Notes: generated from the letters alone by a model not told the origin. A stretch of 64,000 nt of DNA from Flavicella sp. (GCF_029238425.1 NZ_JAQWGB010000106.1:9910-73909), one strand, 5' to 3'. Counted from the first letter of the stretch, positions 13,207-30,939 are shown. Program-made: numbers and translations.

Positions 13207-13214
13207 CAAATTTA
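13207..13214 (-). promoter_or_regulatory. Candidate -7 box (TAAATTTG on the minus strand) for the ferritin gene
   Basis: Plus-strand CAAATTTA, 24 nt upstream of the ATG at 13183. Confidence 0.35.
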
Positions 13215-13282
13215 TAAAATTCTAAAGATGATTGAAAGCACAATCCATAGTTTGGATTGATTTTAAACAAAACGTATAAAGT

Positions 13283-13735: not shown

Positions 13736-13743
13736 TATATTTG
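13736..13743 (+). promoter_or_regulatory. Candidate -7 box TATATTTG
   Basis: Exact TAnnTTTG 31 nt upstream of the ATG at 13774. It overlaps the TTG at 13741 used by the ORF track, which argues for the 13774 start. Confidence 0.35.
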
Positions 13744-13773
13744 CCTTTTGAAAATCATCTAAAAATATTTTTC

Positions 13774-14400
13774 ATGTCAGTACTACCCATGCCTTTTAAA
13801 AAGCTACATGCTACAATCAAAGAATTATTAGAAAACTTAGAGATTTCTGAACCAACTACATTCCAGACTAAAAGTATTCCAGTTATTAAAAGTGGTGCGA
13901 ATGTATTTTGCACGGGACCTGCTGAATTAGGAAAAACTACGACACTAATTCTAACTACCATGCATAAATTGAAATGCGAAGCGGTAGGCACGGCACCTAG
14001 AGCCATCATTCTGGTGGAAAACAGAGAAAAAGCGTTGGCAATTTATGATACTTTGACAGCGTATACTCGTTACAATAGTTTGCGTGTTTATTTGGCTGAT
14101 GAGAAGATTCATATAGATTTACTAAAATCAGAAATATTTGAAGGCGTCGATATTCTTATTGCAACCCCACAATCTTTAAATAAATTGCTATTATCCAACG
14201 GAGTAAGTACTTCTTCTTTGATGTTGTTTAGTATTGATGATGCTGATTTTCTTTCACAAAGAGCTGCTTTTTCTACTTTATTGTCCATAACACCAAGTAT
14301 TACAAAATGCCAATTTGTATTATACGCTCAAAAAATGACACCAAAACTTCAGTCGTTAGATTCCTATTTTATGGAATATGCAAAGATTGTTTCGGTTTAA
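13774..14400 (+). CDS. Stand-alone degenerate DEAD-box RecA1-like domain protein
   Basis: 208 aa. The Q-motif region is kept (TTFQTKSIP). Other motifs are altered: I GPAELGKT (vs AxTGSGKT), Ia ENREKA (vs PTRELA), Ib TPQS (vs TPGR), II DDAD (vs DEAD), III YAQ (vs SAT). No RecA2 domain follows. Confidence 0.7.
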   Translation: MSVLPMPFKKLHATIKELLENLEISEPTTFQTKSIPVIKSGANVFCTGPAELGKTTTLILTTMHKLKCEAVGTAPRAIILVENREKALAIYDTLTAYTRYNSLRVYLADEKIHIDLLKSEIFEGVDILIATPQSLNKLLLSNGVSTSSLMLFSIDDADFLSQRAAFSTLLSITPSITKCQFVLYAQKMTPKLQSLDSYFMEYAKIVSV

Positions 14401-14442
14401 ATACAACTAAAAAGTCCCATCTAAAAAATGGGACTTTATATA

Positions 14443-15897
14443 TTAAAACATTCCAGGGATTCCTCTCAATTGTCCCACGAGTGCTAAAGAGATCACACAC
14501 ACTAAGAACATGACACCAGGAATAATTAATTTTTCCTTCATCGATAAATTCTTAGCCCGCTCCTTATCTCCTATCAACCCTAAATTATCTAACAGCATAG
14601 TCAAAGCCCAACCAAAAACTGGATTTACAAAGGCACAAGCAAAAATACAAGTACCTGCACTTAAGGAACTTTTTTGTGTTTTAATCATTTGCATTCCCGC
14701 TTCGAGTAGTGGCAAGAATACTCCTACGATAAGTGCAATTCTCAGGACAGGTTCCCACATAGCCAAATCCATAGGGTATCCTAAAATGGCAAATGCAATA
14801 CATAAGATAGCCGTTAAAACAGCTCCTCCAGGAATCGGTCGTTTCGCAATTGCTGCTGGAATCATATAAGTTCCCCATGAGGAAGCGATATTTCCTCCTC
14901 CTAAAATAGAACCAATTATTTGACGGATGGAAGCAACTGTCATCGTATCATCAACATCCATTAATACTTTTTTTGCTTTTTTAGGGTAGTTTATTTCCTG
15001 AAACACTCGGTGACCTAAAAAATCCGGAGACCACATTGCAACCGCTAAAATTGCAAAAGGAACTACCGCTATATAATGCTCAAAGTTAGGCCACCCCAGT
15101 TTCCAACCGGTAGTTTCTCCCCACCAATAAAATGGACTAAAATGTGGAAGTCCAGGTTTGGTAGTAAAAGCAAAATCGGCTCCCATTAAAAAAGCAATCA
15201 ATCCTGCCAATGCAGAACATAATGGAATTGCCAACCACCTTTTGTTTACTCGAGCCAAATAGGCGTATATAAAAATTGTGACACCAATAATCACAAAGGA
15301 AAGTGCAATAATTTCAGTATCTGCAGACCAAAGTTCTAACTTTTTTATTTGACTGATCAGTCCAACGGCACCAAGATATATGAGCAAGCCTCCACGTACT
15401 CCCACACTTGTTAGGTTCATTAATTTGGACCCTCCTTTGGTTATACTTAATAATATTCCAAACACACCAATCAAAATCCCTAAGGCTAAAGGATGTCCTC
15501 CTGCAAGTGCAATGATTGGAATAAGAGGAATCATAGGGCCATGTGTTCCTGCAAGATTTGCTGTAGGGTTTAATATAGCCGAAAACAAAATAACAAATAT
15601 CCCTCCAGCGATTAATAATTCGTATCTGACATTTTCTGCAATAAATTCAGGAGTTAAGCCAAACTGGATAGCAAATGCAGCAACCATGGCTGTCACCATT
15701 ACCACCTTTCCAATAGTCGCTGCAAGTGCGGGTACCAAATCTTCAATTTCTATATGAAAATCACGAAATGGCAAGTGAACCTTCCATCTCTTAAAGTTCA
15801 TGATTTCTAATTCATGCTCTAAATACTCTTGACGTGTTTTAAATTCTTTTGATTTCTTGCGCTGTTTCTTATAGCTATTCTCTGATTTCATTTTCAT
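14443..15897 (-). CDS. Polytopic integral membrane protein, putative permease of unassigned family
   Basis: 484 aa. Basic N-terminal tail (KKQRKKSKEFKTRQ) followed by about 11-12 hydrophobic segments rich in G/A/P. The family was not recognised by eye. Confidence 0.6.
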   Translation of the reverse strand: MKMKSENSYKKQRKKSKEFKTRQEYLEHELEIMNFKRWKVHLPFRDFHIEIEDLVPALAATIGKVVMVTAMVAAFAIQFGLTPEFIAENVRYELLIAGGIFVILFSAILNPTANLAGTHGPMIPLIPIIALAGGHPLALGILIGVFGILLSITKGGSKLMNLTSVGVRGGLLIYLGAVGLISQIKKLELWSADTEIIALSFVIIGVTIFIYAYLARVNKRWLAIPLCSALAGLIAFLMGADFAFTTKPGLPHFSPFYWWGETTGWKLGWPNFEHYIAVVPFAILAVAMWSPDFLGHRVFQEINYPKKAKKVLMDVDDTMTVASIRQIIGSILGGGNIASSWGTYMIPAAIAKRPIPGGAVLTAILCIAFAILGYPMDLAMWEPVLRIALIVGVFLPLLEAGMQMIKTQKSSLSAGTCIFACAFVNPVFGWALTMLLDNLGLIGDKERAKNLSMKEKLIIPGVMFLVCVISLALVGQLRGIPGMF

Positions 15898-15957
15898 AAA
15901 TTATGATATTGGCTTATGCTTATTTTAAGCTATTTGTTTAGGGCCTAAATATAAATT

Positions 15958-15990
15958 CTAAAAAACACTTGATTTATGATAAAAATCAAG
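15958..15990 (-). terminator. Rho-independent terminator at the end of the ebo operon
   Basis: CTTGATTT / AAATCAAG 8-bp stem. On the minus strand it is followed by GTGTTTTTT. Confidence 0.55.
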
Positions 15991-16105
15991 CCTCTTTAAA
16001 AATGAAAATTGTTGCAATTCAATATAATTAAAAATAGAAGCGTTTAACTTCAAAATAAGATACAAAGAAAAGTATAGCTTTTAATACTAAAATCGGATGG
16101 TAATT

Positions 16106-17476
16106 CTACGCGTCAAAAACACTAGAAAGAATAACATCTTTAACAGCCACAGCTTCAATATTGTCACTATGATTGTTTTCTGAAATAATGACAGGCATTT
16201 CATTAAAAGGTACATCTACCCTACCATGAGATCCTTGAATCATTTCTCCTTTCAAAGGAATAAAATCGAACAACACTCTAAATCCCATTTTTTTTAGCAA
16301 CAACTTTGCCACAACTTGAAGTTTGATAGCGGTTTTATCAGTATCCAAAAACATTTCTACCGGATCATAACCAGGTTTGTCATGAATCGCTACAGTTCTT
16401 GCAAAATCTGGTGCATTTTTATCGTCCAACCAATAGTAGTAGGTAAACCAAGCATTTGCTTTAGCCACAACCATAAATGCTCCTGATCGATCTTTATGCC
16501 ACAAACCTCTAGAGACTTGTTCCTTTTTATCCAATATTTCTTCAACGCCTTCCGTTTGCTTTAATATTGCCAATACCTCCTGCTCTACTTCAGGTTTACA
16601 ATAAATATGTGCTACTTGATGGTCTGCTACTGCAAACGCATTACTAGTACCCGCATCCAACAATTCTTTATGGTTCTCAGTGCGCACCGCTAAAAGACCA
16701 GATTTTCTGAAAATCCTATTCAAATGAATAGGTGTATCTACTGGAGATATTCCGTATTCTGAAACAACTATTGGGGTTACATTTTTAGCTTCGTAAAAGG
16801 AAATAAGATCTTTTAATACATCATCAATTTCTAAAATATCCTTTTTTACCTGTGGTGAATCCGCCGTATATTTTTGGAAACAGTAATCTAAATGAGGTAA
16901 ATAAATCAATTGCAAAGTCGGATTACACGTGTCATGCACATATTTAGAAGCATCCGCAATCCACTGACTAGATTTTATTGTTGTTCTAGGTCCCCAAAAA
17001 TCAAACAAAGGAAAAACCCCAAATTTGTCTTGTAACTCGTCTCTAAGGTTTGAAGGATGACTATAACAATCTGGCTTTTTTAGCCCGTTAGCTCTATATT
17101 GAGGTCTAGGGGTAACAGAATAGTCAACACTAGAGTACATATTATACCACCAGAACATATTGGCACAAGTAAAATCTTCGTTTTTGATTTTTGCCTCATC
17201 CCAAATATTTGGACTCTCAACCAATTTATTGGATTGTTTCCAAAATTGCACTTCTGATTGCTCTTTATGATACCAACCATTTCCGACAATCCCATGTTCC
17301 GAAGGAGTTTTACCAGTCAAATAAGTCGTTTGCATGGTGCAGGTAACAGCTGGAAGAACAGGAGTAATTGTAGAGACCTTCTTGTTTCTTTTACTCCATT
17401 GTGAGATGAATAAACTTTGGTCCTCTAATATTTTTGTAGTCAATCCAACTACATTAATTACCACTGTTTGCTTCAT
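16106..17476 (-). CDS. eboF: EboF-type alkaline phosphatase / nucleotide pyrophosphatase superfamily protein
   Basis: 456 aa from the ATG at 17476 (MKQTVVINVVGLT..). AP-superfamily features: an N-terminal metal-site threonine context (PAVTCTMQTTYLTG) and LPHLDY. It holds the last position of the ebo order. Confidence 0.8.
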   Translation of the reverse strand: MKQTVVINVVGLTTKILEDQSLFISQWSKRNKKVSTITPVLPAVTCTMQTTYLTGKTPSEHGIVGNGWYHKEQSEVQFWKQSNKLVESPNIWDEAKIKNEDFTCANMFWWYNMYSSVDYSVTPRPQYRANGLKKPDCYSHPSNLRDELQDKFGVFPLFDFWGPRTTIKSSQWIADASKYVHDTCNPTLQLIYLPHLDYCFQKYTADSPQVKKDILEIDDVLKDLISFYEAKNVTPIVVSEYGISPVDTPIHLNRIFRKSGLLAVRTENHKELLDAGTSNAFAVADHQVAHIYCKPEVEQEVLAILKQTEGVEEILDKKEQVSRGLWHKDRSGAFMVVAKANAWFTYYYWLDDKNAPDFARTVAIHDKPGYDPVEMFLDTDKTAIKLQVVAKLLLKKMGFRVLFDFIPLKGEMIQGSHGRVDVPFNEMPVIISENNHSDNIEAVAVKDVILSSVFDA

Positions 17477-17481
17477 TCTTT

Positions 17482-18687
17482 TTAATTTATTTGATTCAAA
17501 ACCCATTCCATTTCCCTAGAGACTGCCGTCGTAATATCTGTTTGCATTTGATCAGGTAACACGTCCCAAGTATACGTTTCTATTTCTAAATGATTCGTAA
17601 AGGCATTGTCCTTCCATAATTTTAAAACTTCAATTAAATCATCTTGAGTAGATTGTAGTTTTTGATAATCTGCAAGAAATATTGGTACATGATAATGTGT
17701 TCTTAATTCCCGAAAAGTAGCACTTTCCATTGCTTCAATGGCAACATCTAAATCGGGAAATTTCCTAAATTCTCCATTTTTAGTTTTTATAATTGCCTGA
17801 TGAAGATAATTTGGTTCATGAAAGGCCAGCAGATGATCTTGCAATTCATTAAGAGCGTAATTCCCATCAATATGACATTTTAAAGCTGAACTCAGTTGTA
17901 ACTTCCCTATTTTTATTTTATGGGTATTCATCAACGAAATAACCTCCGAAGGCTTTTCAAATGCAACAGCAGAATGGCAAATATCAAAACACAACTGAAC
18001 ATGCTCTCTGATCGCTAGTTCAGCTTCTGCCCTAGTACATTCTTTTAAAGTTTGTAATTCTGAAATTCCCTTTCCGATAAGAAATTCATTGTAAAATGCT
18101 ACGAACTCATTTGAATTTTCAATGATCCCATCAGGTTCTGGCTCTATATCTAAATGGAGTGTTTTTCCTGTTTTGGATTTTATGTCCATTAAATGAAAAA
18201 CTACATCTATAATTGCCGAACAAGCTTGCGTTTTTGCTTTCACTAATTCCGATGGGTTATGGTGCCAAAACTTATAAGAAATCGGTGATGTTGAAATCCC
18301 GCCAGTCATTGATTCTGGTAATAATTCACCTAAAATATCAAACAATTGCTTTGTATAATTTTTCCTTGAAATATTTGTCCAATCCGGTGCATGAACTTGA
18401 TCTTTTATCACTTCCCCATGAAAACTACCAAAAGGAAACCCGTTCATAGTATATACATACAGCTGATGTTCTTTTAACCAGGTTTTAAAATTGCGCAAAG
18501 TTTCTTTTTTACTCAATTCCTCAGCAGCAATATTTGACAAACGCAGGCCTATACCGAAAGGAGCATCGGGTGAAATCCTACTTTTAACTTCTAGAATATA
18601 AATCTCCAAGTTTTTAAAAATCTCGCTCCAAGATTCACCTGCATGAATATTTGTACAATAACTTAAATGGCCTGTTCCAATCTTCAT
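17482..18687 (-). CDS. eboE: EboE-type xylose-isomerase-like TIM-barrel protein (metabolite traffic protein EboE)
   Basis: 401 aa. N-terminus MKIGTGHLSYCTNIHAGESW. Its start forms an ATGA overlap with the eboD stop (18684-18687). Confidence 0.8.
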   Translation of the reverse strand: MKIGTGHLSYCTNIHAGESWSEIFKNLEIYILEVKSRISPDAPFGIGLRLSNIAAEELSKKETLRNFKTWLKEHQLYVYTMNGFPFGSFHGEVIKDQVHAPDWTNISRKNYTKQLFDILGELLPESMTGGISTSPISYKFWHHNPSELVKAKTQACSAIIDVVFHLMDIKSKTGKTLHLDIEPEPDGIIENSNEFVAFYNEFLIGKGISELQTLKECTRAEAELAIREHVQLCFDICHSAVAFEKPSEVISLMNTHKIKIGKLQLSSALKCHIDGNYALNELQDHLLAFHEPNYLHQAIIKTKNGEFRKFPDLDVAIEAMESATFRELRTHYHVPIFLADYQKLQSTQDDLIEVLKLWKDNAFTNHLEIETYTWDVLPDQMQTDITTAVSREMEWVLNQIN

Positions 18688-19868
18688 ACGGCATGTAAAT
18701 TTATGACAAAGGTTTTTATAAAGGCAACAGATTCATTTAATTTTTCTTCCTCCATCTCATGAATTTCCCCCCCTTTCCCTATCGATTTTAATAGCATTAT
18801 GGTCAGTTCACCTCCCAAATGCTCTCTAAATTCTTCTAGACCACTTATTAATTCTGGATTTATCGCATTTTTATCCTCAGGATCGAATAATAACTCATGA
18901 TCCAATTGAAAATTCAATTGTTGAAAACATGTTATTATACGTAACATTTCTTCTTTCGTCAAAAATCCTTTAAAGTAAGAATAAGAACTATCTAATACTA
19001 TACCTACTGCAACTGCCTCACCATGTGTGAGTTTGTAATTGGTTAAATACTCCAATTTATGTGCCGCCCAATGCCCAAAATCCAAAGGCCTTGAAGAGCC
19101 TTGTTCAAAAGGATCCCCTGCAGTTCCTATATGCTCTGTGTGCAATTCAGCACATCGGAATATCAAATGCTCAATGGTTTTAGAATCCCTGTTATTTAAA
19201 AGGGTACTATTATTTTCTATCCATTCAAAGAAAGATACATCTTTTATCAAAGCAACTTTTATGGCCTCGGAGATACCAGAACGAAAATCACGATCCGATA
19301 AACTATCTAAAAAGTAGCTGTCATTGATTACAGCAAACGGAGGTTGAAAGGTTCCTAAAAAATTCTTTTTTTCAAAATAATTGAAGGAATTTTTCACCCC
19401 AACACCTGAGTCATTTTGAGAAAGTACCGTGGTCGGAATTCGAATCAATCGAACACCTCTATGAGCAATTGCACTTGCAAAGCCAACCATATCAAGTACA
19501 GCACCACCTCCGACTGAGATAATAAAGGAATGTCTGTCGATTTTCTGAGTATTTAATAATTCTAAGACACTTTCTACAGAGTTCCAATTATTTTTAACCT
19601 TTTCACCACCATCCACGATAAGAGGAGTTCCCATTAAAGTGATATTTTTATGATAGGTTTGAAAATAGGTTTCAATCTTATCTATTAGCTGACGTTGATG
19701 CGCATACAACCCTTGATCCAAAACCACCACAGCTTTTGCCGTTCTTATAGAAGGTACACTTGTCAATACTTCTTTTAAAAATGTATTCTCAGCTCTAAAT
19801 ACATCTTCAGTAAAAGAGATGTTATAATTGAATTGAACTTGAAAGTTTTGTTGTATTACTTTATTCAT
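18684..19868 (-). CDS. eboD: EboD-type 3-dehydroquinate-synthase-like sugar-phosphate cyclase
   Basis: 394 aa. DHQS-fold motifs: GGGAVLDMVGFASA (NAD site), IPTTVLSQNDSGVGVK, and metal ligands in the HTEH and HG.AVA contexts. Confidence 0.85.
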   Translation of the reverse strand: MNKVIQQNFQVQFNYNISFTEDVFRAENTFLKEVLTSVPSIRTAKAVVVLDQGLYAHQRQLIDKIETYFQTYHKNITLMGTPLIVDGGEKVKNNWNSVESVLELLNTQKIDRHSFIISVGGGAVLDMVGFASAIAHRGVRLIRIPTTVLSQNDSGVGVKNSFNYFEKKNFLGTFQPPFAVINDSYFLDSLSDRDFRSGISEAIKVALIKDVSFFEWIENNSTLLNNRDSKTIEHLIFRCAELHTEHIGTAGDPFEQGSSRPLDFGHWAAHKLEYLTNYKLTHGEAVAVGIVLDSSYSYFKGFLTKEEMLRIITCFQQLNFQLDHELLFDPEDKNAINPELISGLEEFREHLGGELTIMLLKSIGKGGEIHEMEEEKLNESVAFIKTFVINLHAV

Positions 19869-19913
19869 AAATTAAACCTAAATAATCTTCTACTTATTTT
19901 CTTTCTACTTCTA

Positions 19914-20801
19914 TTAGGTGACTGCATAACGTTTGGCCACAAAAATTGACAGTGGTAACAAACACAATAAAAGCAATCCATAAACTCCATTTGAAAAGCC
20001 TGCTACATAAATAGCATTTAATGGGATTAAGGATAATACCCCTGTTTTTACAGCATTCTTAATTTTTTCTGGAATATTATTTTTTATCGCTCTTATTTTT
20101 GCATTCAAGTTAATTCCATACCAGAATATTAAAAATGGACTTGATGTAAGAATATCCAAATATCCTTTTAGCATCAAAACAATAAAAAAACCAACTACAG
20201 AAGTATCCAGTAATATAGCTTTAAAAATTGAGTTTTTATTGTGACCATGTGCTTCTTTTTGCCCTACAAGAGTAATAGCAGCAACAAACACCAAAGGAAC
20301 AAAACCAATAAACCACATAGACGAAACAACAGAAGGAACTATACTCATCCCTAATAATAAATTTGCCGATCTACATAACCCCATATTTATAGGCCCTAAA
20401 ACAGTATTATGTTTCGAGAACTTATCATATGACATGGCTAAAGCTGCTGTTGTAGTCGCTAGCATTCCGCTAAAAACAGAGACCAAAAACCCACAACTGA
20501 TTCCTGTTAAAAACAATAGGCTTCCAAAATAAATCGCTTCTTGTTTTGAAATTTTTCCTAATGGAAGCACTCGCTCAGGTCTATTTTTCTTGTCGTCCTC
20601 AATATCAAAAATATCATTAAAAACAATTCCACCCCCATACAAACCTATTGTTGCGAGTATAAGAAGAAAACTGTTCCTCAATAATTCTTCATCAAAAGAA
20701 TTTATTAAAACTCCAGAAATCGCTAAACCTGCAACAATATCTGATATCGCTGTTATGATATTGGCTGGACGAGCCATTTTGATAAAACTACCTAACCTCA
20801 T
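19914..20801 (-). CDS. eboC: EboC-type UbiA-family prenyltransferase
   Basis: 295 aa from the ATG at 20801 (MRLGSFIKMARPANI..). First Asp-rich motif NDIFDIEDD, about 8 TM helices. The start lies 1 nt after the eboB stop (TAAcATG). Confidence 0.85.
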   Translation of the reverse strand: MRLGSFIKMARPANIITAISDIVAGLAISGVLINSFDEELLRNSFLLILATIGLYGGGIVFNDIFDIEDDKKNRPERVLPLGKISKQEAIYFGSLLFLTGISCGFLVSVFSGMLATTTAALAMSYDKFSKHNTVLGPINMGLCRSANLLLGMSIVPSVVSSMWFIGFVPLVFVAAITLVGQKEAHGHNKNSIFKAILLDTSVVGFFIVLMLKGYLDILTSSPFLIFWYGINLNAKIRAIKNNIPEKIKNAVKTGVLSLIPLNAIYVAGFSNGVYGLLLLCLLPLSIFVAKRYAVT

Positions 20802-20802
20802 G

Positions 20803-21708
20803 TTAGTTTTTGATAATATTTGAATACGTTTTTTTGACAAATTCTTGTCCACGTAAAACCGAATTTCCATTCAAAAGTTCCTGCTCTTCAATCTTCATTT
20901 CTGTCAACCAATCTGATTCGTTAAATTGACCGCTCTGTCCGTAAACATCCAATGCATTTTTATAACAAGTTAGGTGCATGTCTTCTTGAGAAACACCTCT
21001 TTCTATCATAAGTGCAGCGGTTTTTGGAACAGCTAATGGGTCACTTACCCCCCAATCTGCCGAACTGTCAACGATAATTCTTTCTGAACCATATTGTTTT
21101 ACAACTTCTACCATTCTTTCATTTCCCATTTTGGTATTTGGGTAAATGGTGAAAGCAGCCCAATATCCTCTGTCTAAAACATCTTTTACTGTTTCTTCAT
21201 TATTGTGATCAATTACAACCATGTTTGGAGCTACACCATGTTCTTTAATGACATCCATACTTCTTATGGTTCCATTTTTCTTGTCTCTATGAGGTGTGTG
21301 AACCATTATCGGTAAATTTAGCTCTTTAGCCAATTCTATTTGCTGTCTAAAGTATTTATCCTCAGCCGCTGTTTGATCGTCATATCCAATTTCACCAATA
21401 GCTACAACTCCCTCTTTGGCTGCATACAATGGTAATAGGTCCATAACTTCCTCTGCCAAAGCTTCATTATTAGCTTCTTTAGAATTCAGTCCAATGGTAC
21501 AATAATGCTTGATACCAAATTGAGAAGCCCTAAAACGTTCCCAATTGACCAAGCTATTAAAATAATCTTGAAAAGAACCAACTGAAGTTCTTGGTTGTCC
21601 CATCCAAAAAGCGGGTTCAATAATCGCAACAATTCCTGCTGCTCGCATCGCTTCGTAATCGTCAGTTGTACGAGAAACCATGTGTATATGTGGATCAATA
21701 AAATGCAT
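20803..21708 (-). CDS. eboB: EboB-type TatD-family metal-dependent hydrolase
   Basis: 301 aa. The HxH motif at the N-terminus (IDPHIHM), IGEIGYD and MVHTPH are typical of the TatD/amidohydrolase fold. Confidence 0.85.
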   Translation of the reverse strand: MHFIDPHIHMVSRTTDDYEAMRAAGIVAIIEPAFWMGQPRTSVGSFQDYFNSLVNWERFRASQFGIKHYCTIGLNSKEANNEALAEEVMDLLPLYAAKEGVVAIGEIGYDDQTAAEDKYFRQQIELAKELNLPIMVHTPHRDKKNGTIRSMDVIKEHGVAPNMVVIDHNNEETVKDVLDRGYWAAFTIYPNTKMGNERMVEVVKQYGSERIIVDSSADWGVSDPLAVPKTAALMIERGVSQEDMHLTCYKNALDVYGQSGQFNESDWLTEMKIEEQELLNGNSVLRGQEFVKKTYSNIIKN

Positions 21709-21725
21709 TGTTAAGTGTTTAAGTA

Positions 21726-22553
21726 TTAAATGTTATAGTATTCTTTTCCTACAGATTCCCAAAACCCTGTATCTGTATTAGTCTGTGTATTATTTAGTTC
21801 CAGTACTTTTGTAGCAACTTTCTTCTCTATGGCATTTTCTGAAGTACAAGCTTTGCTAACTGTTTTTTCTAAATCTTGGTTGATGTTACCCAGCATTAAC
21901 TGCCAAAGTTCTGGAGTGAAATTTCTTCCGGCAGCCCAACGTTCATGAACATAATCATTGGCAACCAAGGCTAATTTTTCATTATTTCTTTCTTGAAGTT
22001 TATAAATTGGATACAATGGGCGATAATTAAAAATACCTTTTAAGACCAATTGATTCCAACTATTTTCAGACAAATATGTCGCTGGGAACGGATTGTAGTG
22101 TGCAATCGCATCATAAATGGTAATTACATTGCTACGAATACCTTCTTCAATAAACGAAATGAAGTCTTCTGAATTTTCTAAAAAATATAGACTTTTATAC
22201 AAATCTTCTTGCTCCTTATCACTTGCTGTGTTTTCAAGAAATTGCAAGGTTTTTTTATTTGTTTTCGGATCCAAGTGCAGCATCAATAAAGCCCTTGTGA
22301 GAGAATGTGTATTCCATCCTTTCGCATGGAATGAAGGATAGATATCTTCCAGAACTGCTAATTCGTTCTCTGAATAAGAAATATCATTTCTAGAAATAAA
22401 ACGATACACCAAACTATAGGCTAACAAAAACTTTTTACCTGTAGCATCTTCATCAATTTTATTAAAATTTGAAGCTAGCCACTCAAATTCTTTATCCGTT
22501 AAATGATGCTTTAATAGCTTTTCTAAAAAAAATACTGTTGAGATTTCCGACAT
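21726..22553 (-). CDS. eboA: EboA-like protein (function unknown)
   Basis: 275 aa, helical, no catalytic motif. Assigned from its position as the first gene ahead of the TatD/UbiA/DHQS-like/TIM/AP series. Confidence 0.7.
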   Translation of the reverse strand: MSEISTVFFLEKLLKHHLTDKEFEWLASNFNKIDEDATGKKFLLAYSLVYRFISRNDISYSENELAVLEDIYPSFHAKGWNTHSLTRALLMLHLDPKTNKKTLQFLENTASDKEQEDLYKSLYFLENSEDFISFIEEGIRSNVITIYDAIAHYNPFPATYLSENSWNQLVLKGIFNYRPLYPIYKLQERNNEKLALVANDYVHERWAAGRNFTPELWQLMLGNINQDLEKTVSKACTSENAIEKKVATKVLELNNTQTNTDTGFWESVGKEYYNI

Positions 22554-22775: not shown

Positions 22776-22810
22776 AAAAATCCGACAGTTTATGTACTAT
22801 CGGATTTTTT
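22776..22810. terminator. Hairpin terminator separating the ferritin-like operon from the ebo operon
   Basis: AAATCCGACAGT / ACTATCGGATTT stem (one mismatch) flanked by an A5 run and a T6 run. Confidence 0.55.
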
Positions 22811-22866: not shown

Positions 22867-24030
22867 TTATTCCTGTGCTACTTCTAATGAAAACTTCTCA
22901 CTTTCGCTCAAGTCTTGTGAAACCACATATTCATAACTCGGACCTGCCACAAAACCAGGATTATTTGGATCTGGTAAAGCCATAAGTTTCAATGCATATA
23001 ATCTCAATGCATACATAGATCCCATGGCGTTGCTCAATTTATCTGGCTGACCATTAAAGGTTTCATGCAAACTATTCAATAAATTGGTATAGTTATAGTT
23101 GAACAATTTACTATTTAGATAAGCTAAAGAGTTTACGGAATAATCACTCATTTTTGGGTTTTCCGTCATATTTGGAACCTCATTTGCATAAAACGGTATT
23201 TCATCACCTCCATAAGAATACCCTACTTCAGATGAACTGTCTTTGATCAATTCTTTACCCGCATAGATTTCACCGAATCTATAATAATGCGCTGGTTCAT
23301 TTGCGGTATCCCCATCAATATCCGCTTCCACAAAAGGATCTGTCGTACTTCCTTCCCCTTGATCTACAATTATTTCTATCGCTCTTTTTGCGGTTTCTAA
23401 ATCCGTAATAGCAAATAATTCTGATTCAGGAAACCAATTAGGATTCACAACTTGCTTGCTCATAGCTCCACAAAATATAGTTTCACCTTTTAGCTTTGCA
23501 ACAATTTCATAAATTTCTAAAAGCAGTGTAATATATTCATAATATTCACCTATTGTTAAATTGTCTTTTGCTTCTAATTCTGAAACTCTCTGCTCTAACT
23601 GAGATTTCAAATCTGAATTTGCCAATAATTTGTTAGACGATATTTTGATATCAATCGGATGCTCAGGTTCCTCTATCACCATAAAAACATCTTTAACCAA
23701 GGATTTAGAAAATTTTGCAATAGGTACCGTTAAACCAGATTCAACTCCACCAGGTAAAGGTCCAGGATATGTAGGAACAAATCCTTTTTCATTCAAAACA
23801 GGGGAACCATCTATGGCATTCAATAAGTTACAAGCAATGGTCAAATGAAGCATTTCTTCAATCACAACGGAATGAATCAAACCTGCTATTTTAGTGTTCT
23901 TTGTATTTGCCAATGAAAACATTGCTGTCAAATACGGAGGAATTGTTGCATGCTCTAATTCAATCGCAGTCTGTATAGAATCTTTAAGTTTTTTAAGAGA
24001 ATCTATCTTTTTATTTTTAAGTAAAATCAT
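22867..24030 (-). CDS. Ferritin-like domain protein (VioB/RebD-related ferritin-like family), putative di-metal enzyme
   Basis: 387 aa. AIELEHATIPPYL and VIEEMLHLTIACNLLNA give two ExxH helices. No signal peptide and no TM segment. Confidence 0.65.
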   Translation of the reverse strand: MILLKNKKIDSLKKLKDSIQTAIELEHATIPPYLTAMFSLANTKNTKIAGLIHSVVIEEMLHLTIACNLLNAIDGSPVLNEKGFVPTYPGPLPGGVESGLTVPIAKFSKSLVKDVFMVIEEPEHPIDIKISSNKLLANSDLKSQLEQRVSELEAKDNLTIGEYYEYITLLLEIYEIVAKLKGETIFCGAMSKQVVNPNWFPESELFAITDLETAKRAIEIIVDQGEGSTTDPFVEADIDGDTANEPAHYYRFGEIYAGKELIKDSSSEVGYSYGGDEIPFYANEVPNMTENPKMSDYSVNSLAYLNSKLFNYNYTNLLNSLHETFNGQPDKLSNAMGSMYALRLYALKLMALPDPNNPGFVAGPSYEYVVSQDLSESEKFSLEVAQE

Positions 24031-24048
24031 AATATTATAAGGTTGTTT

Positions 24049-25836
24049 CTATTTTGCAGCTACTGCTTCATTCATTTGTTTGTCGTTGATGATACCCTCT
24101 AAATAATTAAGAATCATTTGTTGTTTATCTCTTGATAAATCTCTGGTAACGGGCATGTAATTTGGGTCTGATACTTCTTTACCAAAAACAAATTTTAGTA
24201 TTTCGGCATGTTTATCCACTACTTCTTGATTGGATAGTTTAAACACTCCTCGTGACATTATCGGATATAAGTTCGAATACTGCTGCATCGTTGGCTGTAA
24301 ATCGGACCACTTAGGGTTTTCAATCACATCCTTCGCTACTTTGTCAAAAACCATAATACTTATAAAATTTATTGGATTGCAATCCACAAAAAACGATCCC
24401 TCTAAACTATAATTCAAAGCATACAACTGACCGTCAATAAATTCTCTTGGATTTCCCGGGTCAGCAGCATTTAATTCCATGTATGCCACTCCATTCTCAT
24501 CTGTTTTCACAGCTGGAGTAAATATCAAGGCACTCAAAGGAACTCCTAATGTAGGATTGTCTGCTCCTTGTAATAAATTCGCAGTATCATAATTTACCAC
24601 GATCGATTTATTTGCCAATGGCTTTCCAAATTCAGTAGCATAAAACTTTACATGGGCAGTATCTTCTGGGTTCATACGAAATACATAGGTATCAGCAACC
24701 ACATAATTTTTTCTTTCCTCTAACATTGGAGTTGCAGATTGTTTAAGACCTAAACTATTTGTTTGACTTGTAGAGTAATCAAGGATCACCAATGGATTCT
24801 TTTGAACCAGTTCTAAATTTTCTTTGGATAAATCAAAAGTGCAAATCCCCGAATCCTTTTCGTACCAACCTGGTTCATTATAATTAACAGCTCCTAAATA
24901 AACATAATTCGGATTTTCCTTTGTACCAGTATTTATAGCCAAAGTCATGTTTGCGTTTTCGATGATCCCTACTTGTGCTGTTGCAATCGTTTCTGGCTTT
25001 CCTTCCGTATCGATGATATCAATAGGTGCTTGAGGTGCAATTCCAAATTGTAAAGAATTTGAGAAATTTAAAACGACTTGACTTAATTTTTCATCTACAA
25101 TAGCCATTGCATAATTAACTGAAGATACGCTAGGAAACAACTGTCTACCTTGAATGTGATGCACAGGCTCCTCATCAAATACAGGTCCGATAGTCCCCAC
25201 CATCCTACCTAAAGTAAATTCAGGAGAAGTATGATCTCCATTGTATCTATCAACGGTAAACTGTATAGATAAACTATCTTTGCTGGTTTGCATCAATTCT
25301 TTCAGATACCTAGAACCAACGTTTTCTATATCCCACTCTAAATTTTTTATTTGTGATTGATAGGTGGCTGCTGCAGCAGAATCGGCTTTTTTATCTAAAG
25401 ACCTATTGAACCAGATATTAGTAAATGCTGCTACTTCATAATCACCTTTCACATAAGTTGAATCTCCTTTTCCAATTCGAACAATAAGTCCCCAAATTTC
25501 AGAAACCATTTGTTGTTGAGAATCTAAATCTACCATCTTTCCCGCTACTCTAGAGTCGGTATCCATAATATTCATACCAATAATGGGGTCTTTTTTGGGA
25601 TCTTTTGTACTTGTACCATCCAAATACGTAACACTTTGAATTTTTAGGTCTATCAAACGAAAATTTCCAGTTCCGGTAGGATTCCACCAACCATTGGCAT
25701 TTTTACCATCTTGAAAATCTTGATAGCTTGATTGGAAGGTTGCATTATTAAAATGATTGGGATCATTGTTTACTGTAGATACATCTGACTGAAACCTTCC
25801 GGAAAAGGTAAGTCTAGGGGTTTGTAAATAAGACAT
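24049..25836 (-). CDS. Large conserved-looking hypothetical protein with no recognisable domain
   Basis: 595 aa from the ATG at 25836 (MSYLQTPRLTFSGRFQSDVSTVNND..). Uninterrupted coding-like composition. It ends 18 nt upstream of the ferritin-like gene. Confidence 0.75.
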   Translation of the reverse strand: MSYLQTPRLTFSGRFQSDVSTVNNDPNHFNNATFQSSYQDFQDGKNANGWWNPTGTGNFRLIDLKIQSVTYLDGTSTKDPKKDPIIGMNIMDTDSRVAGKMVDLDSQQQMVSEIWGLIVRIGKGDSTYVKGDYEVAAFTNIWFNRSLDKKADSAAAATYQSQIKNLEWDIENVGSRYLKELMQTSKDSLSIQFTVDRYNGDHTSPEFTLGRMVGTIGPVFDEEPVHHIQGRQLFPSVSSVNYAMAIVDEKLSQVVLNFSNSLQFGIAPQAPIDIIDTEGKPETIATAQVGIIENANMTLAINTGTKENPNYVYLGAVNYNEPGWYEKDSGICTFDLSKENLELVQKNPLVILDYSTSQTNSLGLKQSATPMLEERKNYVVADTYVFRMNPEDTAHVKFYATEFGKPLANKSIVVNYDTANLLQGADNPTLGVPLSALIFTPAVKTDENGVAYMELNAADPGNPREFIDGQLYALNYSLEGSFFVDCNPINFISIMVFDKVAKDVIENPKWSDLQPTMQQYSNLYPIMSRGVFKLSNQEVVDKHAEILKFVFGKEVSDPNYMPVTRDLSRDKQQMILNYLEGIINDKQMNEAVAAK

Positions 25837-26062
25837 TTTATATTTTTTAGGTTGAAATTTATTTAGATTTAATGCGACCGAAAACAGATCGACCAAAACT
25901 CAATTCAATATTAAATAATTAGAGAAATGTTTAGTTTATAAATTCCATAAGTACCAAAAAAACAGGCATAAGTGTCCTGAATAACTTTATCGAAAAAGAA
26001 TACGATTTCCAATTATTTAGTCAGCAATTCAAGGAACGGCCTACATTATTCAAAAGGATTGT

Positions 26063-26070
26063 TATATTTG
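26063..26070 (+). promoter_or_regulatory. Candidate -7 box TATATTTG
   Basis: Exact TAnnTTTG 32 nt upstream of the ATG at 26102. Confidence 0.3.
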
Positions 26071-26101
26071 TTTAAAGTGATGAACTTGATAACATTTTAA
26101 A

Positions 26102-27931
26102 ATGATAGAACTTTCCGGAATTATTATATTAGGAATTTTAGCACAATGGTCGGCATGGAAATTTAAAATTCCTGCTATTTTACCTTTGATTTTAATAGGG
26201 TTACTTGTCGGACCTGTTGCCTCAGAGTGGCTTAGTTCTGATGGAACTAAATGGATTGAACCTGTTTGGAATGGTGAAAAAGGATTGTTCCCTGGAGAAA
26301 GTCTTTATTACTTTGTCTCCTTGGCCATTAGTTTGATTCTATTTGAAGGTGGATTGACACTGAAATTAAATGAAATTAAAAACGTTGGACCTGTCATCAC
26401 TAAATTGATAACCATTGGTTCCGCTGTAACGTTTTGGGGAGCTGGGTTTGCTGTTCATTTTATTTTCGACTTATCTTGGCAGGTATCCTTTCTATTCTCA
26501 GCTTTGATTATTGTAACCGGACCTACAGTAATCACTCCTATTTTAAGAAATATACCCTTAAAAAAAGATATCTCTGCTGTATTGAAATGGGAAGGGATAT
26601 TGATAGATCCTATTGGGGCTTTAGTTGCCGTATTAGTGTTTGAATTTATCAATGTAGGTACAGGAACCACTTATACAAAAACAGCCTTTGTTGAATTCGG
26701 AAAAATTGTATTATTCGGTTCTACTTTTGGTTTTACATTTGCGCATGCCTTAGGCTATGCCATTCGAAGAAAACTCATTCCTCATTATTTATTGAACGTA
26801 TTTGTGCTTGCCTCTGTTTTGGGGATATTTGTGTTATCTGATACCTTTTCTCACGAATCAGGATTGTTATCAGTGGTAGTGATGGGAATGGTGTTAGGAA
26901 ACTCTAATCTTCCACATTTGAATGAAATACTAGATTTTAAAGAATCCATCAGTGTTTTATTGATTTCTATTTTATTTATTTTATTAGCTGCAAATGTAAA
27001 TTGGAGCGATTTGATGCTGATTTACAACTGGAAAACATTGGCTATCTTTTTAATTGTTGTTTTTGTAATAAGGCCCTTAGGAGTCTTTTTATCATCAATC
27101 AACTCTACTTTAAAATTCAATGAAAAACTATTTATCAGTTGGGTAGGACCACGTGGTATTGTAGCTGCTGGTATCGCTTCTCTTTTTGGTTTAAAATTGG
27201 TAAAAAATAATGTTGAGGGAGCGGAATACATAACACCTTTAGTATTTGTTATTGTTTTGGGTACGGTTCTTTTTAACGCAACCACAGCAAGATTGTTTGC
27301 GAAAATCTCTAAAGTGTTTTTACAAAACTCCAATGGGATTTTAATTATTGGAGCTTCTAAATTCTCTAGGTTAATTGCTGAATACCTTAATGAAAACGAC
27401 CAACAAGTTGTTTTGATGGATTCTAATATAGCGAATATTGAAAAGGCAAAAAAGATGGGACTGGATGCTTCTTTAGTCGATATCTACTCTGATGAATTGA
27501 TTGATAATATTGAACTTAGTAATATTGGTTTTTTAATTGCTTTGACAGGAAATGCAGAAATCAATAAATATGCAATACAACGTTTTAAAAAGCAATTTGG
27601 AGAAAATGGAGTTTTTAGAATACGTACACATGATGAAATCATTGAAAACCCAAGGAATTCTAACTTGATGTATCATAAAAACGATTATGTTTCTGTAATG
27701 GAAGTAGCCAATCAATTTCCGACAGTACAAGAGGTTCCTTTTACTACGAAAGAGGAATATATTGGTTTGATTCGCCTGACTGAAAAAGATGCGGATATGA
27801 TACCTTTATTTGTAAAATACCCAGACGGTCATTTAGATATTATAACTTATGTGAATAAAACTCGTTTAGAGAATATAAAACCCGGAACTAGCTTTGTTTA
27901 TCTAGGGAAAGAGATTGAAAATAATTCATAA
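26102..27931 (+). CDS. Cation:proton antiporter (CPA1/NhaP-like) with a C-terminal TrkA-N/RCK-like domain
   Basis: 609 aa. About 12 TM segments with Na+/H+ exchanger-type sequences (LFEGGLTL, ATDPV-like VTGPTVITPIL). The soluble C-terminal region includes ILIIGASKFSRLIAEYL (Rossmann-like). Confidence 0.85.
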   Translation: MIELSGIIILGILAQWSAWKFKIPAILPLILIGLLVGPVASEWLSSDGTKWIEPVWNGEKGLFPGESLYYFVSLAISLILFEGGLTLKLNEIKNVGPVITKLITIGSAVTFWGAGFAVHFIFDLSWQVSFLFSALIIVTGPTVITPILRNIPLKKDISAVLKWEGILIDPIGALVAVLVFEFINVGTGTTYTKTAFVEFGKIVLFGSTFGFTFAHALGYAIRRKLIPHYLLNVFVLASVLGIFVLSDTFSHESGLLSVVVMGMVLGNSNLPHLNEILDFKESISVLLISILFILLAANVNWSDLMLIYNWKTLAIFLIVVFVIRPLGVFLSSINSTLKFNEKLFISWVGPRGIVAAGIASLFGLKLVKNNVEGAEYITPLVFVIVLGTVLFNATTARLFAKISKVFLQNSNGILIIGASKFSRLIAEYLNENDQQVVLMDSNIANIEKAKKMGLDASLVDIYSDELIDNIELSNIGFLIALTGNAEINKYAIQRFKKQFGENGVFRIRTHDEIIENPRNSNLMYHKNDYVSVMEVANQFPTVQEVPFTTKEEYIGLIRLTEKDADMIPLFVKYPDGHLDIITYVNKTRLENIKPGTSFVYLGKEIENNS

Positions 27932-27981: not shown

Positions 27982-30939
27982 TTATATTTTTATAACCTTT
28001 TTGTAGGCAGTATAAGAATCAGCACTTATTTTTAAAATATACATACCTGTAGCCAATTGAGAAGCATCAACTCTCGGTAAACGTGAGTCAACTTGAATCT
28101 TTTTAATTAAACGCCCTGATGCAGATAACACTTCTACTTCCATTTGTTGGATCCTCTCTGCGATGGTGAAATAGAAATACCCATTTGATGGATTTGGGTA
28201 TACCTGTAATTTTCTACTAAACTCTTCATTGACACTCAACTCACCTTCAGAACCAATATTCCCCGATACACCGTTCACTATCTCGTTGTATTTCCATAAA
28301 TTATATTCTGTATCTTCAGAGAACAACCAATTACTACTATCATTAATACTAGCTCTTAGTTCTGCTGCAGTACCAGATAAAGCCCCTGTGTACACTCCAT
28401 AATTATGCTTCTCTCCTACTTGGTTTGCATTTAATCCATTTGTTAAAGCGGTAGGCAATTCACAATACGAATTTCCACCTCCTAAGCCCCAACCAGAACC
28501 AGTATGCAATCCTGTTATCCATAAACTAGCAGAAGCATCAGTTGGCAATGCAAAAGGGTCTGCTTGAAAAAATAGTATTCCATCTCCATTTGTGGATAAG
28601 TCAAAATCACCATCACTGCTTTCAGCTGCTTTTCCTGTATGATCATGAGAAGTGGTACCAACTACTTCCTGGGAATCCATATTGACCCGTTTTACCAATC
28701 CATCAGAATCCAATATAAAGTGATCCCCAACAGCTAAAGCTTCTCCCGCAGACCAAGTCCAAATATCATCTACACTATAGTCACCAGTAAATTGACTAGA
28801 ACCATTGCTCCATGTTCTATTAGATATCGAAATTTTAGTTGTAGCACTTATATCTTTTAATAAAACAAATCCTATTTTTCCAGAACCAGCTTTCCAACCT
28901 GTAAGAGCAATATCTCCAGCTGTTAAGGTTGTAGGGTTTATAACATCGTAAATAGTAATTTGTGCAGGAGTTTCGTTTACAGTTCCCGTTGAAATTCCGG
29001 TTAAAGTCAAGATTACTGTTTCACTAGTCTCATCAATACCGTCTTCAATTGCATTGATACTGATCTCACTCGAATTGGTAGCTTCTAAAATTGTGATTGT
29101 ACCCGAAATTGTAGAATAATCAACTCCATTAGTAGCTTCTCCTGAAATTGAATAACTGATATCAATATCTTCTGTTGCCAAAACATCCTCAGGCAAACTC
29201 ACTTTAAAGATTCCGTTAGTTCCACCCTCAATTGCATCACTTGTACCACTAATCGAAACAATACTTAGTTCGCCTTCCAATTTTAACAATGGGCTTTCAA
29301 AAAGTCTATCATACCCCGGTAATGTTCCATCTTTCCATAAAGGACCATGAACATGGGTATCCCCTTCACCATCGGCATCACTGTCATAATGAGCATTGTC
29401 ATACCAAGCAGGCTTAACATCTTTGAAATCCTTAACCAAAGTAATTGCTTTGTCTAATATGTCTTGAACAATTTCTTCACCACCTGACTGACTTCTTATA
29501 TTGGTGCTTTCTCCTGGATCTGTAGAAATGTCATACAAGTTCCATTGTCCACCATTGGCTGTTTTTACAATTTTATAATTTTCATAAGCAAAAGCTCCGT
29601 TATGAAAGCCATTTTGTGGTCTCATTACCAAAAGTCCTTCGTCAGGCCTGGCATCATCTCCATCAATCATAGCATCCATAAAATCAACCCCATCAATAAT
29701 TTTACCTGCAGGAACAGATTCTCCTGCTAAACCAATTAAGGTTGGATAAATATCTAATGAGCTTATTTGATGATCATAAGTTGCTGGTGAAATCTTATCT
29801 GGCCAAGAAACAAACATAGGAACTTTGTGACCGCCATCTCTAACACTACCTTTTCCCGCATCTAAAGGATAATTAACTGCTCCTTTACTATGTGTATAAC
29901 CTCCGTTGTCACTTAAAAAAATAATAACGGTGTTATTGAATTTTGTCATGTCTTTTTTAAGTTCTGTAACCAATCTTCCAATATTTGTATCCATATTGGA
30001 AACCATAGTCGCATAAGTAATTCTAGCATCGACAAACTTATCAATCAATTCTTGCTTCTCTGCGGGGTCATCTACCTTCTCTACTGGTGTTGACTCTGTA
30101 ATATAAGTACTATTACTTATCAAGCTTTCAAAATTAGGATTGTCTAATTTAAACCGAGCTTCTTCTGCTGCAGGTACTTGCAATGGTGTGTGCGGTGCAT
30201 TATAGGACAGGTACATAAAATAAGGATCAGAAGAATTTGAAATGCTTTGGATATAAGTAATCACATCATCCGTTATTACATCAGTTAAATAATCCTCCTC
30301 ATTGGTGTTGCTGAACTCATTTCTATCTACATATGCTCTATTTCTCCACACCGGATCTTGATATTCATTCGTAACTGGGTTATCACCATCAAGACGATTG
30401 TAAAAGGCATCTTCATAAATAGATTCAAAATAGTTTTTACCACCACCTAAAAAACCAAAAAAGTAGTCGAAACCACGATCCAAAGGTTGATACGATCCTT
30501 CTGTAAAACCTAAATGCCATTTTCCAAAGGCCGCAGTATTATAGTCAGAATCTTGCAATACTGTAGTAAAATAAGTTTCGTTTACCGGAATCCCTAGCGG
30601 GGTTGTAATATCATTTGGTAAATTATATTGTGCTCCTATTCTATGAGGAAGCATACCTGTAAGCAATGCCGCTCTACTTGGCCCACAAAAAGGATGTGCC
30701 ACATGTGCATTTTTACAGACGATACCGCTATTTGCAAGTTTATCTATCTCAGGTGTTGGAATTACACCTCTATCAATTGGAAAATCATCTTCTCTATTGA
30801 AACCAACATCACCGTACCCCAAATCGTCTGCTAAAATAACGATGACATTGGGTCTAGATCCATTGGTACTTTGTGCTAATACAAAATGAGATGCACTTAG
30901 CATAATTAAAGAAAGTAGTAGTTGTTGTAGTTTAGTCAT
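27982..30939 (-). CDS. Secreted multidomain sulfatase with Calx-beta domain and T9SS C-terminal sorting domain
   Basis: 985 aa. Signal peptide, sulfatase signature CGPSRAALLTG (formylglycine C-x-P-x-R) and DDLGYGD. A Calx-beta-like segment (DISYSISGEATNGVDYS..ETVILTL). C-terminal VYPNPSNGYFYF...GMYILKI is a Por secretion tail. Confidence 0.85.
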   Translation of the reverse strand: MTKLQQLLLSLIMLSASHFVLAQSTNGSRPNVIVILADDLGYGDVGFNREDDFPIDRGVIPTPEIDKLANSGIVCKNAHVAHPFCGPSRAALLTGMLPHRIGAQYNLPNDITTPLGIPVNETYFTTVLQDSDYNTAAFGKWHLGFTEGSYQPLDRGFDYFFGFLGGGKNYFESIYEDAFYNRLDGDNPVTNEYQDPVWRNRAYVDRNEFSNTNEEDYLTDVITDDVITYIQSISNSSDPYFMYLSYNAPHTPLQVPAAEEARFKLDNPNFESLISNSTYITESTPVEKVDDPAEKQELIDKFVDARITYATMVSNMDTNIGRLVTELKKDMTKFNNTVIIFLSDNGGYTHSKGAVNYPLDAGKGSVRDGGHKVPMFVSWPDKISPATYDHQISSLDIYPTLIGLAGESVPAGKIIDGVDFMDAMIDGDDARPDEGLLVMRPQNGFHNGAFAYENYKIVKTANGGQWNLYDISTDPGESTNIRSQSGGEEIVQDILDKAITLVKDFKDVKPAWYDNAHYDSDADGEGDTHVHGPLWKDGTLPGYDRLFESPLLKLEGELSIVSISGTSDAIEGGTNGIFKVSLPEDVLATEDIDISYSISGEATNGVDYSTISGTITILEATNSSEISINAIEDGIDETSETVILTLTGISTGTVNETPAQITIYDVINPTTLTAGDIALTGWKAGSGKIGFVLLKDISATTKISISNRTWSNGSSQFTGDYSVDDIWTWSAGEALAVGDHFILDSDGLVKRVNMDSQEVVGTTSHDHTGKAAESSDGDFDLSTNGDGILFFQADPFALPTDASASLWITGLHTGSGWGLGGGNSYCELPTALTNGLNANQVGEKHNYGVYTGALSGTAAELRASINDSSNWLFSEDTEYNLWKYNEIVNGVSGNIGSEGELSVNEEFSRKLQVYPNPSNGYFYFTIAERIQQMEVEVLSASGRLIKKIQVDSRLPRVDASQLATGMYILKISADSYTAYKKVIKI

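Follow-up and report, generated by a model that had tools for sequence, protein, structure and literature searches.

A two-gene relative of the VioB/RebD/StaD enzymes beside an ebo cluster in Flavicella sp.

A DNA stretch of 64,000 nucleotides (nt) from Flavicella sp. (GCF_029238425.1, NZ_JAQWGB010000106.1:9910-73909; called here the window, with a G+C content of about 33%) contains on its minus strand two adjacent open reading frames (ORFs) coding for proteins of 595 and 387 amino acids (aa). Profile comparisons indicate that these two ORFs are almost certainly the two modules of a single enzyme of the VioB/RebD/StaD type. Within this large enzyme family, only VioB, RebD and StaD, known as iminophenyl-pyruvate dimer synthase or chromopyrrolic acid synthase, have to our knowledge been studied; oxidases of the VioB/RebD type join molecules derived from tryptophan in the synthesis of violacein and rebeccamycin. 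The kind of enzyme is already known; what is new is that the partner of the ferritin-like protein supplies the remaining half of that enzyme, that a large uncharacterised sister clade of VioB/RebD/StaD is present in split and fused forms in at least 298 species genomes, and that this clade belongs to an ebo-associated module with a VOC protein, which was not found described in the literature searched. The same literature contains no description of a role for the 580-aa N-terminal (N) module or for the conserved Glu/His site. The reading that we favour, with a probability of about one half, is that the pair acts as an accessory oxidative tailoring enzyme of an ebo/thallusin-type pathway.

The two ORFs and their relation to VioB, RebD and StaD

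The pair is composed of:

24049-25836, minus strand: 595-aa ORF (N module), counted from its ATG
22867-24030, minus strand: 387-aa ORF (ferritin-like, PF12902)

The intergenic gap is of 18 nt (24031-24048). An original prediction, made from the sequence alone, had described two genes 18 nt apart in the interval 22867-25836, and both are found there. A TTG codon at 25896, 60 nt upstream of the ATG, could lengthen the 595-aa ORF; the ATG is retained as the correct start because the homologues all begin at MSYL. Both ORFs are considered to be real genes, since each matches hundreds of homologous proteins, the lowest E-values being 0. Exact or 99%-identical copies of both proteins were recovered by protein database search from a Flavicella sp. 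metagenome-assembled genome, and a genome scan gave an identity of 78% between the locus and Flavicella sediminum.

The search of Pfam with the 595-aa protein recovered no family, and the NCBIfam model of VioB (TIGR04492) gives only a weak collinear match (residues 516-589 to model positions 515-589). The VioB of C. violaceum was used as search query only; the comparisons were made with the database proteins that it retrieved, which are annotated VioB (91% identity to the C. phragmitis protein) or are RebD-like chromopyrrolic acid synthases. Profiles of 28 sequences for the 595-aa family and of 14 sequences for the VioB/RebD/StaD-type family were then compared with hhalign, which aligned residues 1-586 of the former to VioB residues 1-582 (99.75%, E-value 2e-27, 534 columns). 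The 595-aa protein, for which the original prediction could name no domain, is thus homologous over its full length to the N-terminal 580 residues or so of VioB, and the profile comparison places it in a characterised family (VioB/RebD/StaD), an outcome that the prediction had itself listed as speaking against it. Its N-terminus MSYLQTPRLTFSG, which had been singled out as distinctive, corresponds to the signature of the VioB family (consensus MSxLDFPRLHFRG, for MSYLNxPRLTFSG in the family of the pair). The AlphaFold2 (AF2) model of this protein is of high quality (predicted local distance difference test, pLDDT, of 92; predicted template modelling score, pTM, of 0.90) and consists of arrayed beta-sandwiches, after which comes a C-terminal subdomain made of helices. 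Foldseek recovered with it only generic Ig/macroglobulin-like beta-sandwich arrays, at a template modelling (TM) score of about 0.14, which give no hint of a function.

The 387-aa protein is recognised by the Pfam model PF12902 (E-value 6e-68; 229.4 bits for a gathering threshold of 22.3; model positions 1-220 of 221), and residues 8-373 of its family align to residues 594-940 of VioB (hhalign, 99.4%, E-value 6e-22), in agreement with the ferritin-like, VioB/RebD/StaD-related assignment initially proposed. Since the two modules align to VioB 1-582 and 594-940, the boundary between the ORFs corresponds to the inter-module linker of VioB.

Relatives were collected by a scan of one genome per species, in which 298 genomes encode a relative of the 595-aa protein; the best 80 loci were fetched and are the basis of all counts given out of 80. 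The ferritin-like gene is located directly downstream of the N gene in about 76 of these loci, so that the adjacency of the two families, which it had been proposed to verify elsewhere, is confirmed. As the two genes are syntenic nearly everywhere, they are taken to work together. Both modules are fused in a single gene coding for about 900 aa in about 22 of the 80 loci and are split in the others. The Chromobacterium protein of 906 aa (P0120) is composed of a 595-aa-like sequence and then of an ELEH/EEMLH ferritin-like sequence, collinear with both ORFs.

Judged by sequence comparison, the pair represents a deep, uncharacterised paralogous clade and not an orthologue of VioB. Against TIGR04492, whose equivalog cutoff is 1250 bits, the 595-aa protein scores 27 bits and the fused protein P0120 scores 16 bits, and the 387-aa protein has no match to this model. 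With 27 bits against 1250 and an identity to VioB of 18-25%, a true VioB orthologue is ruled out. In Chromobacterium sp. IIBBL 290-4, a true VioB (P0244) is encoded alongside the 906-aa paralogue, and their presence in one strain argues that the two proteins differ in function. No gene of an L-tryptophan oxidase (VioA/RebO/StaO) was detected in the window between 14.4 and 27.9 kb, nor among the conserved neighbours of the 80 loci. The pair shares with VioB, RebD and StaD the same full-length two-module architecture, the signature M-S-x-L-x-x-P-R-L-x-F-x-G, the motif YMPxTR(D/E)LS and the core E/ExxH/E/QGEG/H; it differs from them by being split, by an extra conserved histidine (H27) and by an ebo/VOC context in place of vioA/vioE or rebO/staO. 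RebD and StaD are haem proteins, and we know of no haem-binding motif defined for the VioB/RebD/StaD family. VioB is reported to be a haem b protein with catalase activity (PMC9705886); a search of the PDB for a VioB-type structure recovered none, in agreement with a statement of the same paper.

The two ExxH helices indicated by the original prediction are present in the 387-aa protein, where ELEH corresponds to E24-H27 and EEMLH to E58-H62. Residue conservation was evaluated in 77 related loci and in 14 VioB/RebD-family proteins. E26, E59, M60, H62, N68, E120, Q224-G-E226-G and H248 are invariant in all 77 loci and in the 14 proteins, whereas H27 is kept in 72 and E24 in 65 of the 77 loci; a loss of ligands in orthologues, envisaged beforehand as a counter-argument, therefore does not affect E26, E59 and H62. 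The position of H27, the clade-specific histidine of ELEH, is occupied by Leu in VioB and by Trp in 3hl1. The family profile shows a weak match to helices A-B of bacterioferritin, and in an ungapped alignment with 1nf4 the residues E26/E59/H62 fall on E23/E56/H59, which we take to be three of the six di-iron ligands. No second E + ExxH is conserved in the last two helices (C/D) of the 387-aa protein, and the positions of E120, E226 and H248 are found in inserted segments, outside the ferritin-like ligand helices. Altogether, the four invariant carboxylates and the two invariant histidines would fit a non-canonical di-metal site. The protein thus resembles bacterioferritin, rubrerythrin and the di-iron oxygenases by the E...ExxH carried by helices A/B in register with the bacterioferritin ligands, and differs from them by the absence of a second ExxH on helices C/D, by the location of E120/E226/H248 on inserts and by the need for a partner of about 600 aa.

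The best match of the 387-aa protein in the PDB is 3hl1 (CC_0557 from Caulobacter, PF12902), with a profile E-value of 2e-20. This structure is the sole fold match of the ferritin-like half in a concatenated AF2 model of the two proteins, in which the modules are well predicted (pLDDT 90), and the superposition has a TM score of 0.74 (target-normalised). It is a stand-alone structural-genomics protein of uncharacterised function, unlike the pair, has Trp at the H27 position, and gives no functional clue.

Additional copies were noticed in some relatives. A second, longer PF12902 paralogue (506 aa) is found right after the ferritin-like gene in Anabaena azotica (L078 13310-14830), a locus from Chloroflexota (L074) contains two fused copies of about 1070 aa, and in the locus L054 a further ferritin-like copy is located 6 kb off.

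Linkage of the pair to ebo and VOC genes

The plastids of eustigmatophytes and Bacteroidetes are where the ebo operon was first defined (PMC5133447), and it was later linked to the export of scytonemin precursors in Nostoc punctiforme (PMC6282210). A preprint of May 2026 ties the ebo cluster to the biosynthesis of thallusin, a picomolar algal morphogen: a cyclitol is formed by EboD, L-aspartate enters the molecule, 6,7,8-trihydroxyquinaldate is farnesylated by EboC, and the deletion of eboB, eboC, eboE or eboF leads to the loss of thallusin production (10.64898/2026.05.21.724671). The ebo literature examined makes no reference to the pair, nor to any gene of ferritin-like, VioB-like or glyoxalase type.

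In the window, a complete eboA-F cluster is located directly downstream of the pair on the same strand, eboA beginning 313 nt on:

21726-22553, minus strand: eboA (NCBIfam EboA_domain NF035938, 127 bits for a cutoff of 50)
20803-21708, minus strand: eboB, TatD-family hydrolase (Pfam TatD_DNase; 79-92% identity to EboB of other Bacteroidota ebo-linked loci)
19914-20870, minus strand: eboC, UbiA-like prenyltransferase (NF035940 prenyl_rel_EboC, 337 bits for a cutoff of 250)
18684-19868, minus strand: eboD, DHQS-like (NF004852, 556 bits)
17482-18687, minus strand: eboE, TIM-barrel protein (NF035939 TIM_EboE, 476 bits for a cutoff of 250)
16106-17506, minus strand: eboF, type I phosphodiesterase / nucleotide pyrophosphatase family, 466 aa (Pfam Phosphodiest, E-value 2e-59)
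14443-15897, minus strand: DUF3360 membrane protein, 484 aa, last same-strand gene (PF11840, E-value 2e-249)
14411-14437, minus strand: second terminator-like hairpin (12 bp, -14.4 kcal/mol), end of the same-strand block

The eboC ORF overlaps eboB by 68 nt and the EboC family model begins at residue 29; the true start of eboC is probably an internal Met near 20800. The EboF of the window has no C-terminal VOC domain. No homologue of the DUF3360 protein was detected in the 80 related loci; this protein may be a lineage-specific transporter added to the ebo cluster, of which its membership is uncertain.

The six genes by which ebo is defined do not include the pair, and it had been described as an orphan by the original prediction. 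This description is contradicted by the adjoining cluster and by the recurrence of the ebo linkage in other phyla. In 25 of the 80 loci, ebo genes occur at most 10 kb away from the pair (23 with at least three ebo genes and two truncated contigs). These loci represent eight arrangements, are placed by the N-module tree in three deep clades and belong to Bacteroidota, Nostocales and several lineages of Pseudomonadota. The lineages covered by the eight arrangements are Flavobacteriaceae, Flavobacterium, Pedobacter, Nostocales, Undibacterium, Nitrospirillum/Aliidongia, Photobacterium and Lysobacterales, and the gene orders (Fer, ferritin-like gene) include:

Marine Flavobacteriaceae: N-Fer-eboABCDEF
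Flavobacterium: N-Fer-VOC-eboA-F
Other Flavobacterium and Pedobacter: N-Fer-eboA-F-VOC
Nostoc: eboA-eboB-N-Fer-eboC-eboE-eboF
Undibacterium: fused N-Fer gene among ebo genes
Nitrospirillum: divergently arranged genes
Photobacterium: (VTT-EboD)-C-A-B-E-F-N-Fer-VOC-x, a tight 10-gene operon

Ebo clusters are present in about 2.7% of genomes (3,304/124,295; 10.64898/2026.05.21.724671), and since about 30% of the loci are linked, a chance adjacency is not credible.

In the clustering of the neighbouring ORFs, only the ebo genes and a VOC protein (PF00903) of about 145 aa recur in more than one fifth of the loci; 11 loci have a VTT/DedA membrane protein as neighbour. A VOC domain is fused to EboF in the two ebo-linked relatives that are closest (624-629 aa; L001 18057-19931 and L002 18009-19898). 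It is fused to PF12902 in proteins of about 500-507 aa from several Algoriphagus (L008, L009, L013; P0186, P0191, P0200, P0207), which is a second Rosetta-stone link within the module. Scytonemin genes were not detected within 10 kb of the Nostocales loci.

The two Flavicella genomes were compared at this site. In F. sediminum (L007), the pair is followed directly by a DEAD-box-like gene, which in the window is located at 13741-14400, beyond the DUF3360 gene. The block composed of eboA-F and of the DUF3360 gene (about 8.4 kb; 14443-22553 in the window, for 12966-13535 in L007) is thus an indel between the two genomes, the pair being intact in both, and the nucleotide alignment of the spacers of the window and of F. 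sediminum reveals no recognisable junction. The 313-nt spacer before eboA and the hairpin that it contains are particular to the window; in L001, L002 and L023-L027, about 30-80 nt separate the ferritin-like gene from eboA.

Further domain combinations were seen in these neighbourhoods. The EboD of Photobacterium is fused to an N-terminal VTT/DedA domain (L075 2540-4567; L072 2689-4614), and nine other loci, in whose vicinity ebo genes are absent, have free VTT-domain proteins adjoining the pair. In Nostoc sp. NIES-4103 (L032 20172-21284), a DAO-family flavin adenine dinucleotide oxidoreductase (370 aa) is encoded about 3 kb past eboF; it is a possible imine-forming amino-acid oxidase, found in this one locus only.

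Proposed role and competing explanations

As an accessory enzyme of the ebo/thallusin-type pathway, the pair would function as follows. The 595-aa and 387-aa subunits would form a cytoplasmic two-subunit complex, in which the conserved Glu/His residues of the ferritin-like subunit would bind a metal centre, presumably a di-metal centre and possibly haem as in VioB. By analogy with VioB-type chemistry, this centre would activate O2 or H2O2 for a one- or two-electron oxidation. The substrate may be an electron-rich enamine, enol or polyphenol, intermediate or product of the ebo pathway, which yields a farnesylated hydroxyquinoline derived from a cyclitol and aspartate (saccharoquinoline/thallusin). 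The outcome would be a C-C coupling or an oxidative ring opening, and the VOC protein, which belongs to the glyoxalase/dioxygenase superfamily, may handle the product where it is present. A cytoplasmic enzyme modifying small molecules, as first suggested, is still the best reading of the pair, and no hydrophobic stretch is found at either N-terminus by direct reading of the sequences.

A functional link of the pair to the ebo pathway appears to us somewhat more probable than its absence. In its favour are the recurrent linkage, the domain fusions with VOC and the fact that Algoriphagus machipongonensis PR1, a thallusin producer, possesses the trio of N, ferritin-like and VOC proteins. The nature of the step is a more tentative matter. 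For the oxidative rearrangement of saccharoquinoline to thallusin, no enzyme has been identified and no intradiol dioxygenase was found by the authors of the preprint (10.64898/2026.05.21.724671). That the pair specifically performs this late oxidation, or a tailoring reaction equivalent to it, is conceivable and rather unlikely. The same degree of caution applies to the proposal that the N, ferritin-like and VOC proteins constitute together an oxidative tailoring module for ebo meroterpenoids, which would use a non-haem di-metal site either to open the saccharoquinoline ring oxidatively, giving thallusin, or for an oxidative coupling that leads to a new derivative, and that this trio corresponds to the three additional genes of the nematode-repellent EDB cluster. 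The EDB ("edible") cluster of Pseudomonas fluorescens NZI7 is described in a 2026 review as containing, besides six ebo homologues, three genes to which no function is assigned; when it is expressed in E. coli, tryptophol, indole-3-glyoxylamide and new indole dimers are obtained (PMC12904256, PMC9655573). The gene count matches that of the Photobacterium operon with ebo, N, ferritin-like and VOC genes, and indole dimers are the type of product formed by VioB-type enzymes; this is a lead only.

With these proposals, an open question stated explicitly for thallusin/ebo biochemistry is narrowed to a few genes that lend themselves to tests: the pair and the VOC protein are candidates for the late oxidative step of thallusin or for a variant product, and for the three unexplained EDB genes of Pseudomonas. 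If the tailoring module were real, the substrate range of VioB-type enzymes would extend well beyond bisindoles. The split form would allow the separate expression of each module and could aid structural and mechanistic work on VioB-type enzymes.

Several observations weigh against a role in the ebo pathway, and some of them favour a self-contained oxidase module acting on a substrate unrelated to ebo, e.g. in the detoxification or catabolism of aromatic or imino acids, the adjacency resulting from co-regulation or from a shared horizontal transfer. In about 55 of the 80 loci, thus the majority, ebo genes are absent from the 10 kb around the pair (Algoriphagus, Azospirillum, most Acidobacteriota, Chitinophaga). 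F. sediminum retains an intact pair without the ebo block at the site, and in the window the pair and eboA have a strong terminator-like hairpin between them. The other recurrent neighbours are only the VOC and VTT/DedA proteins, and the VOC partner is itself missing from the window, no VOC homologue, VTT homologue or gene remnant being detected in the whole 64 kb. Algoriphagus machipongonensis PR1 is a confirmed thallusin producer with an ebo cluster (10.64898/2026.05.21.724671). Its trio of N (560 aa), ferritin-like (364 aa) and VOC (144 aa) proteins is unlinked to ebo, and in N. punctiforme, another producer, eboA,B,C,E,F are contiguous and do not enclose the pair. Maribacter and Zobellia are classic thallusin producers, and no homologue from these genera appears among the best 120 protein matches or the best 80 genome loci, which are ranked lists and not a census. 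Because both genera apparently lack the pair, it is considered accessory and probably not needed for thallusin itself. Moreover, the mutual arrangement of the subunits is poorly predicted in the concatenated model (pTM 0.66). A module with an unrelated substrate has to account for eight arrangements in three deep clades, including the insertion within the ebo genes of Nostocales and the 10-gene operon of Photobacterium, and for the VOC-EboF fusion of L001 and L002, which ties the third member to an Ebo protein. We regard such a module as possible and rather less likely than not to be the correct explanation.

The full-length homology to VioB and RebD and the common invariant residues could also indicate a true bisindole-type enzyme, which would dimerise an aromatic alpha-imino acid (e.g. 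the imine of indole-3-pyruvate) and would be the source of the indole products of EDB. This agrees with the composition of EDB and its indole dimers (PMC12904256, PMC9655573), with the exactly three extra conserved genes of the Photobacterium ebo operon, which are N, ferritin-like and VOC, and with the presence of PF12902 genes beside lodA-like amino-acid oxidase genes in fungi (PMC4417212). Such an enzyme is nevertheless improbable in view of the score far below the TIGR04492 cutoff and the low identity to VioB, of the absence of a VioA/RebO/StaO-type gene in the window region searched and among the recurrent neighbours, and of the Chromobacterium strain in which the fused paralogue coexists with a true VioB. 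The original view of an orphan operon, transcribed independently, whose products are a ferritin-like protein and a novel domain-less partner, is in keeping with the upstream spacer and the strong downstream hairpin of the pair and with the lack of a Pfam match. It is very improbable: the claims of a protein without domain and of an orphan are refuted by the homology to the N module of VioB, by the natural fusions and by the ebo cluster, which adjoins the pair in the window and recurrently elsewhere. The least probable explanation is an iron-storage or oxidative-stress protein of the ferritin/rubrerythrin type with an accessory subunit, to which the annotation of homologues as "rubrerythrin", the weak profile match to helices A-B of bacterioferritin and the catalase activity reported for VioB (PMC9705886) would correspond. 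It was rejected on the basis of a ligand set that is ferritin-like only in the first half of the ferroxidase ligands, of the long inserts as in 3hl1 and VioB, and of the fusions, the biosynthetic neighbourhood and the requirement for a 600-aa partner, which do not fit an iron-storage ferritin.

Transcription signals and neighbouring genes in the window

The features flanking the pair are the following:

26102-27931, plus strand: Na+/H+ exchanger gene
25837-26101, minus strand: upstream intergenic region, presumed promoter of the pair (265 nt, divergent spacer with the Na+/H+ exchanger gene)
22776-22809, minus strand: intrinsic-terminator-like hairpin and T-run (14-bp stem, -17.5 kcal/mol, 57 nt past the 387-aa stop codon)

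An upstream region and a hairpin terminator belonging to the pair itself had been announced by the original prediction, and both were found. For the Bacteroidota -7 motif TAnnTTTG, the upstream spacer gave no better than one-mismatch matches, with TAATATTG at 25913, 69 nt before the ATG. The sigma-70 promoter scan showed no excess over the shuffled expectation. Terminator-like sites number 13 in 12 kb for 7.2 expected, and the hairpin at 22776-22809 has the longest stem among them. The Rfam scan of the window from 13.5 to 26.5 kb gave no matches.

Three other genes were identified by eye. Just past the cluster, an ORF of 199 aa (12671-13270, minus strand) resembles a classical bacterial ferritin, and an HtpG-like chaperone gene is located at 10614-12527 (plus strand); both are seemingly unrelated to the pair. 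Upstream of the Na+/H+ exchanger gene, a secreted protein of 985 aa (27982-30939, minus strand) appears sulfatase-like, with a C-terminal domain of the sorting type typical of Bacteroidota.

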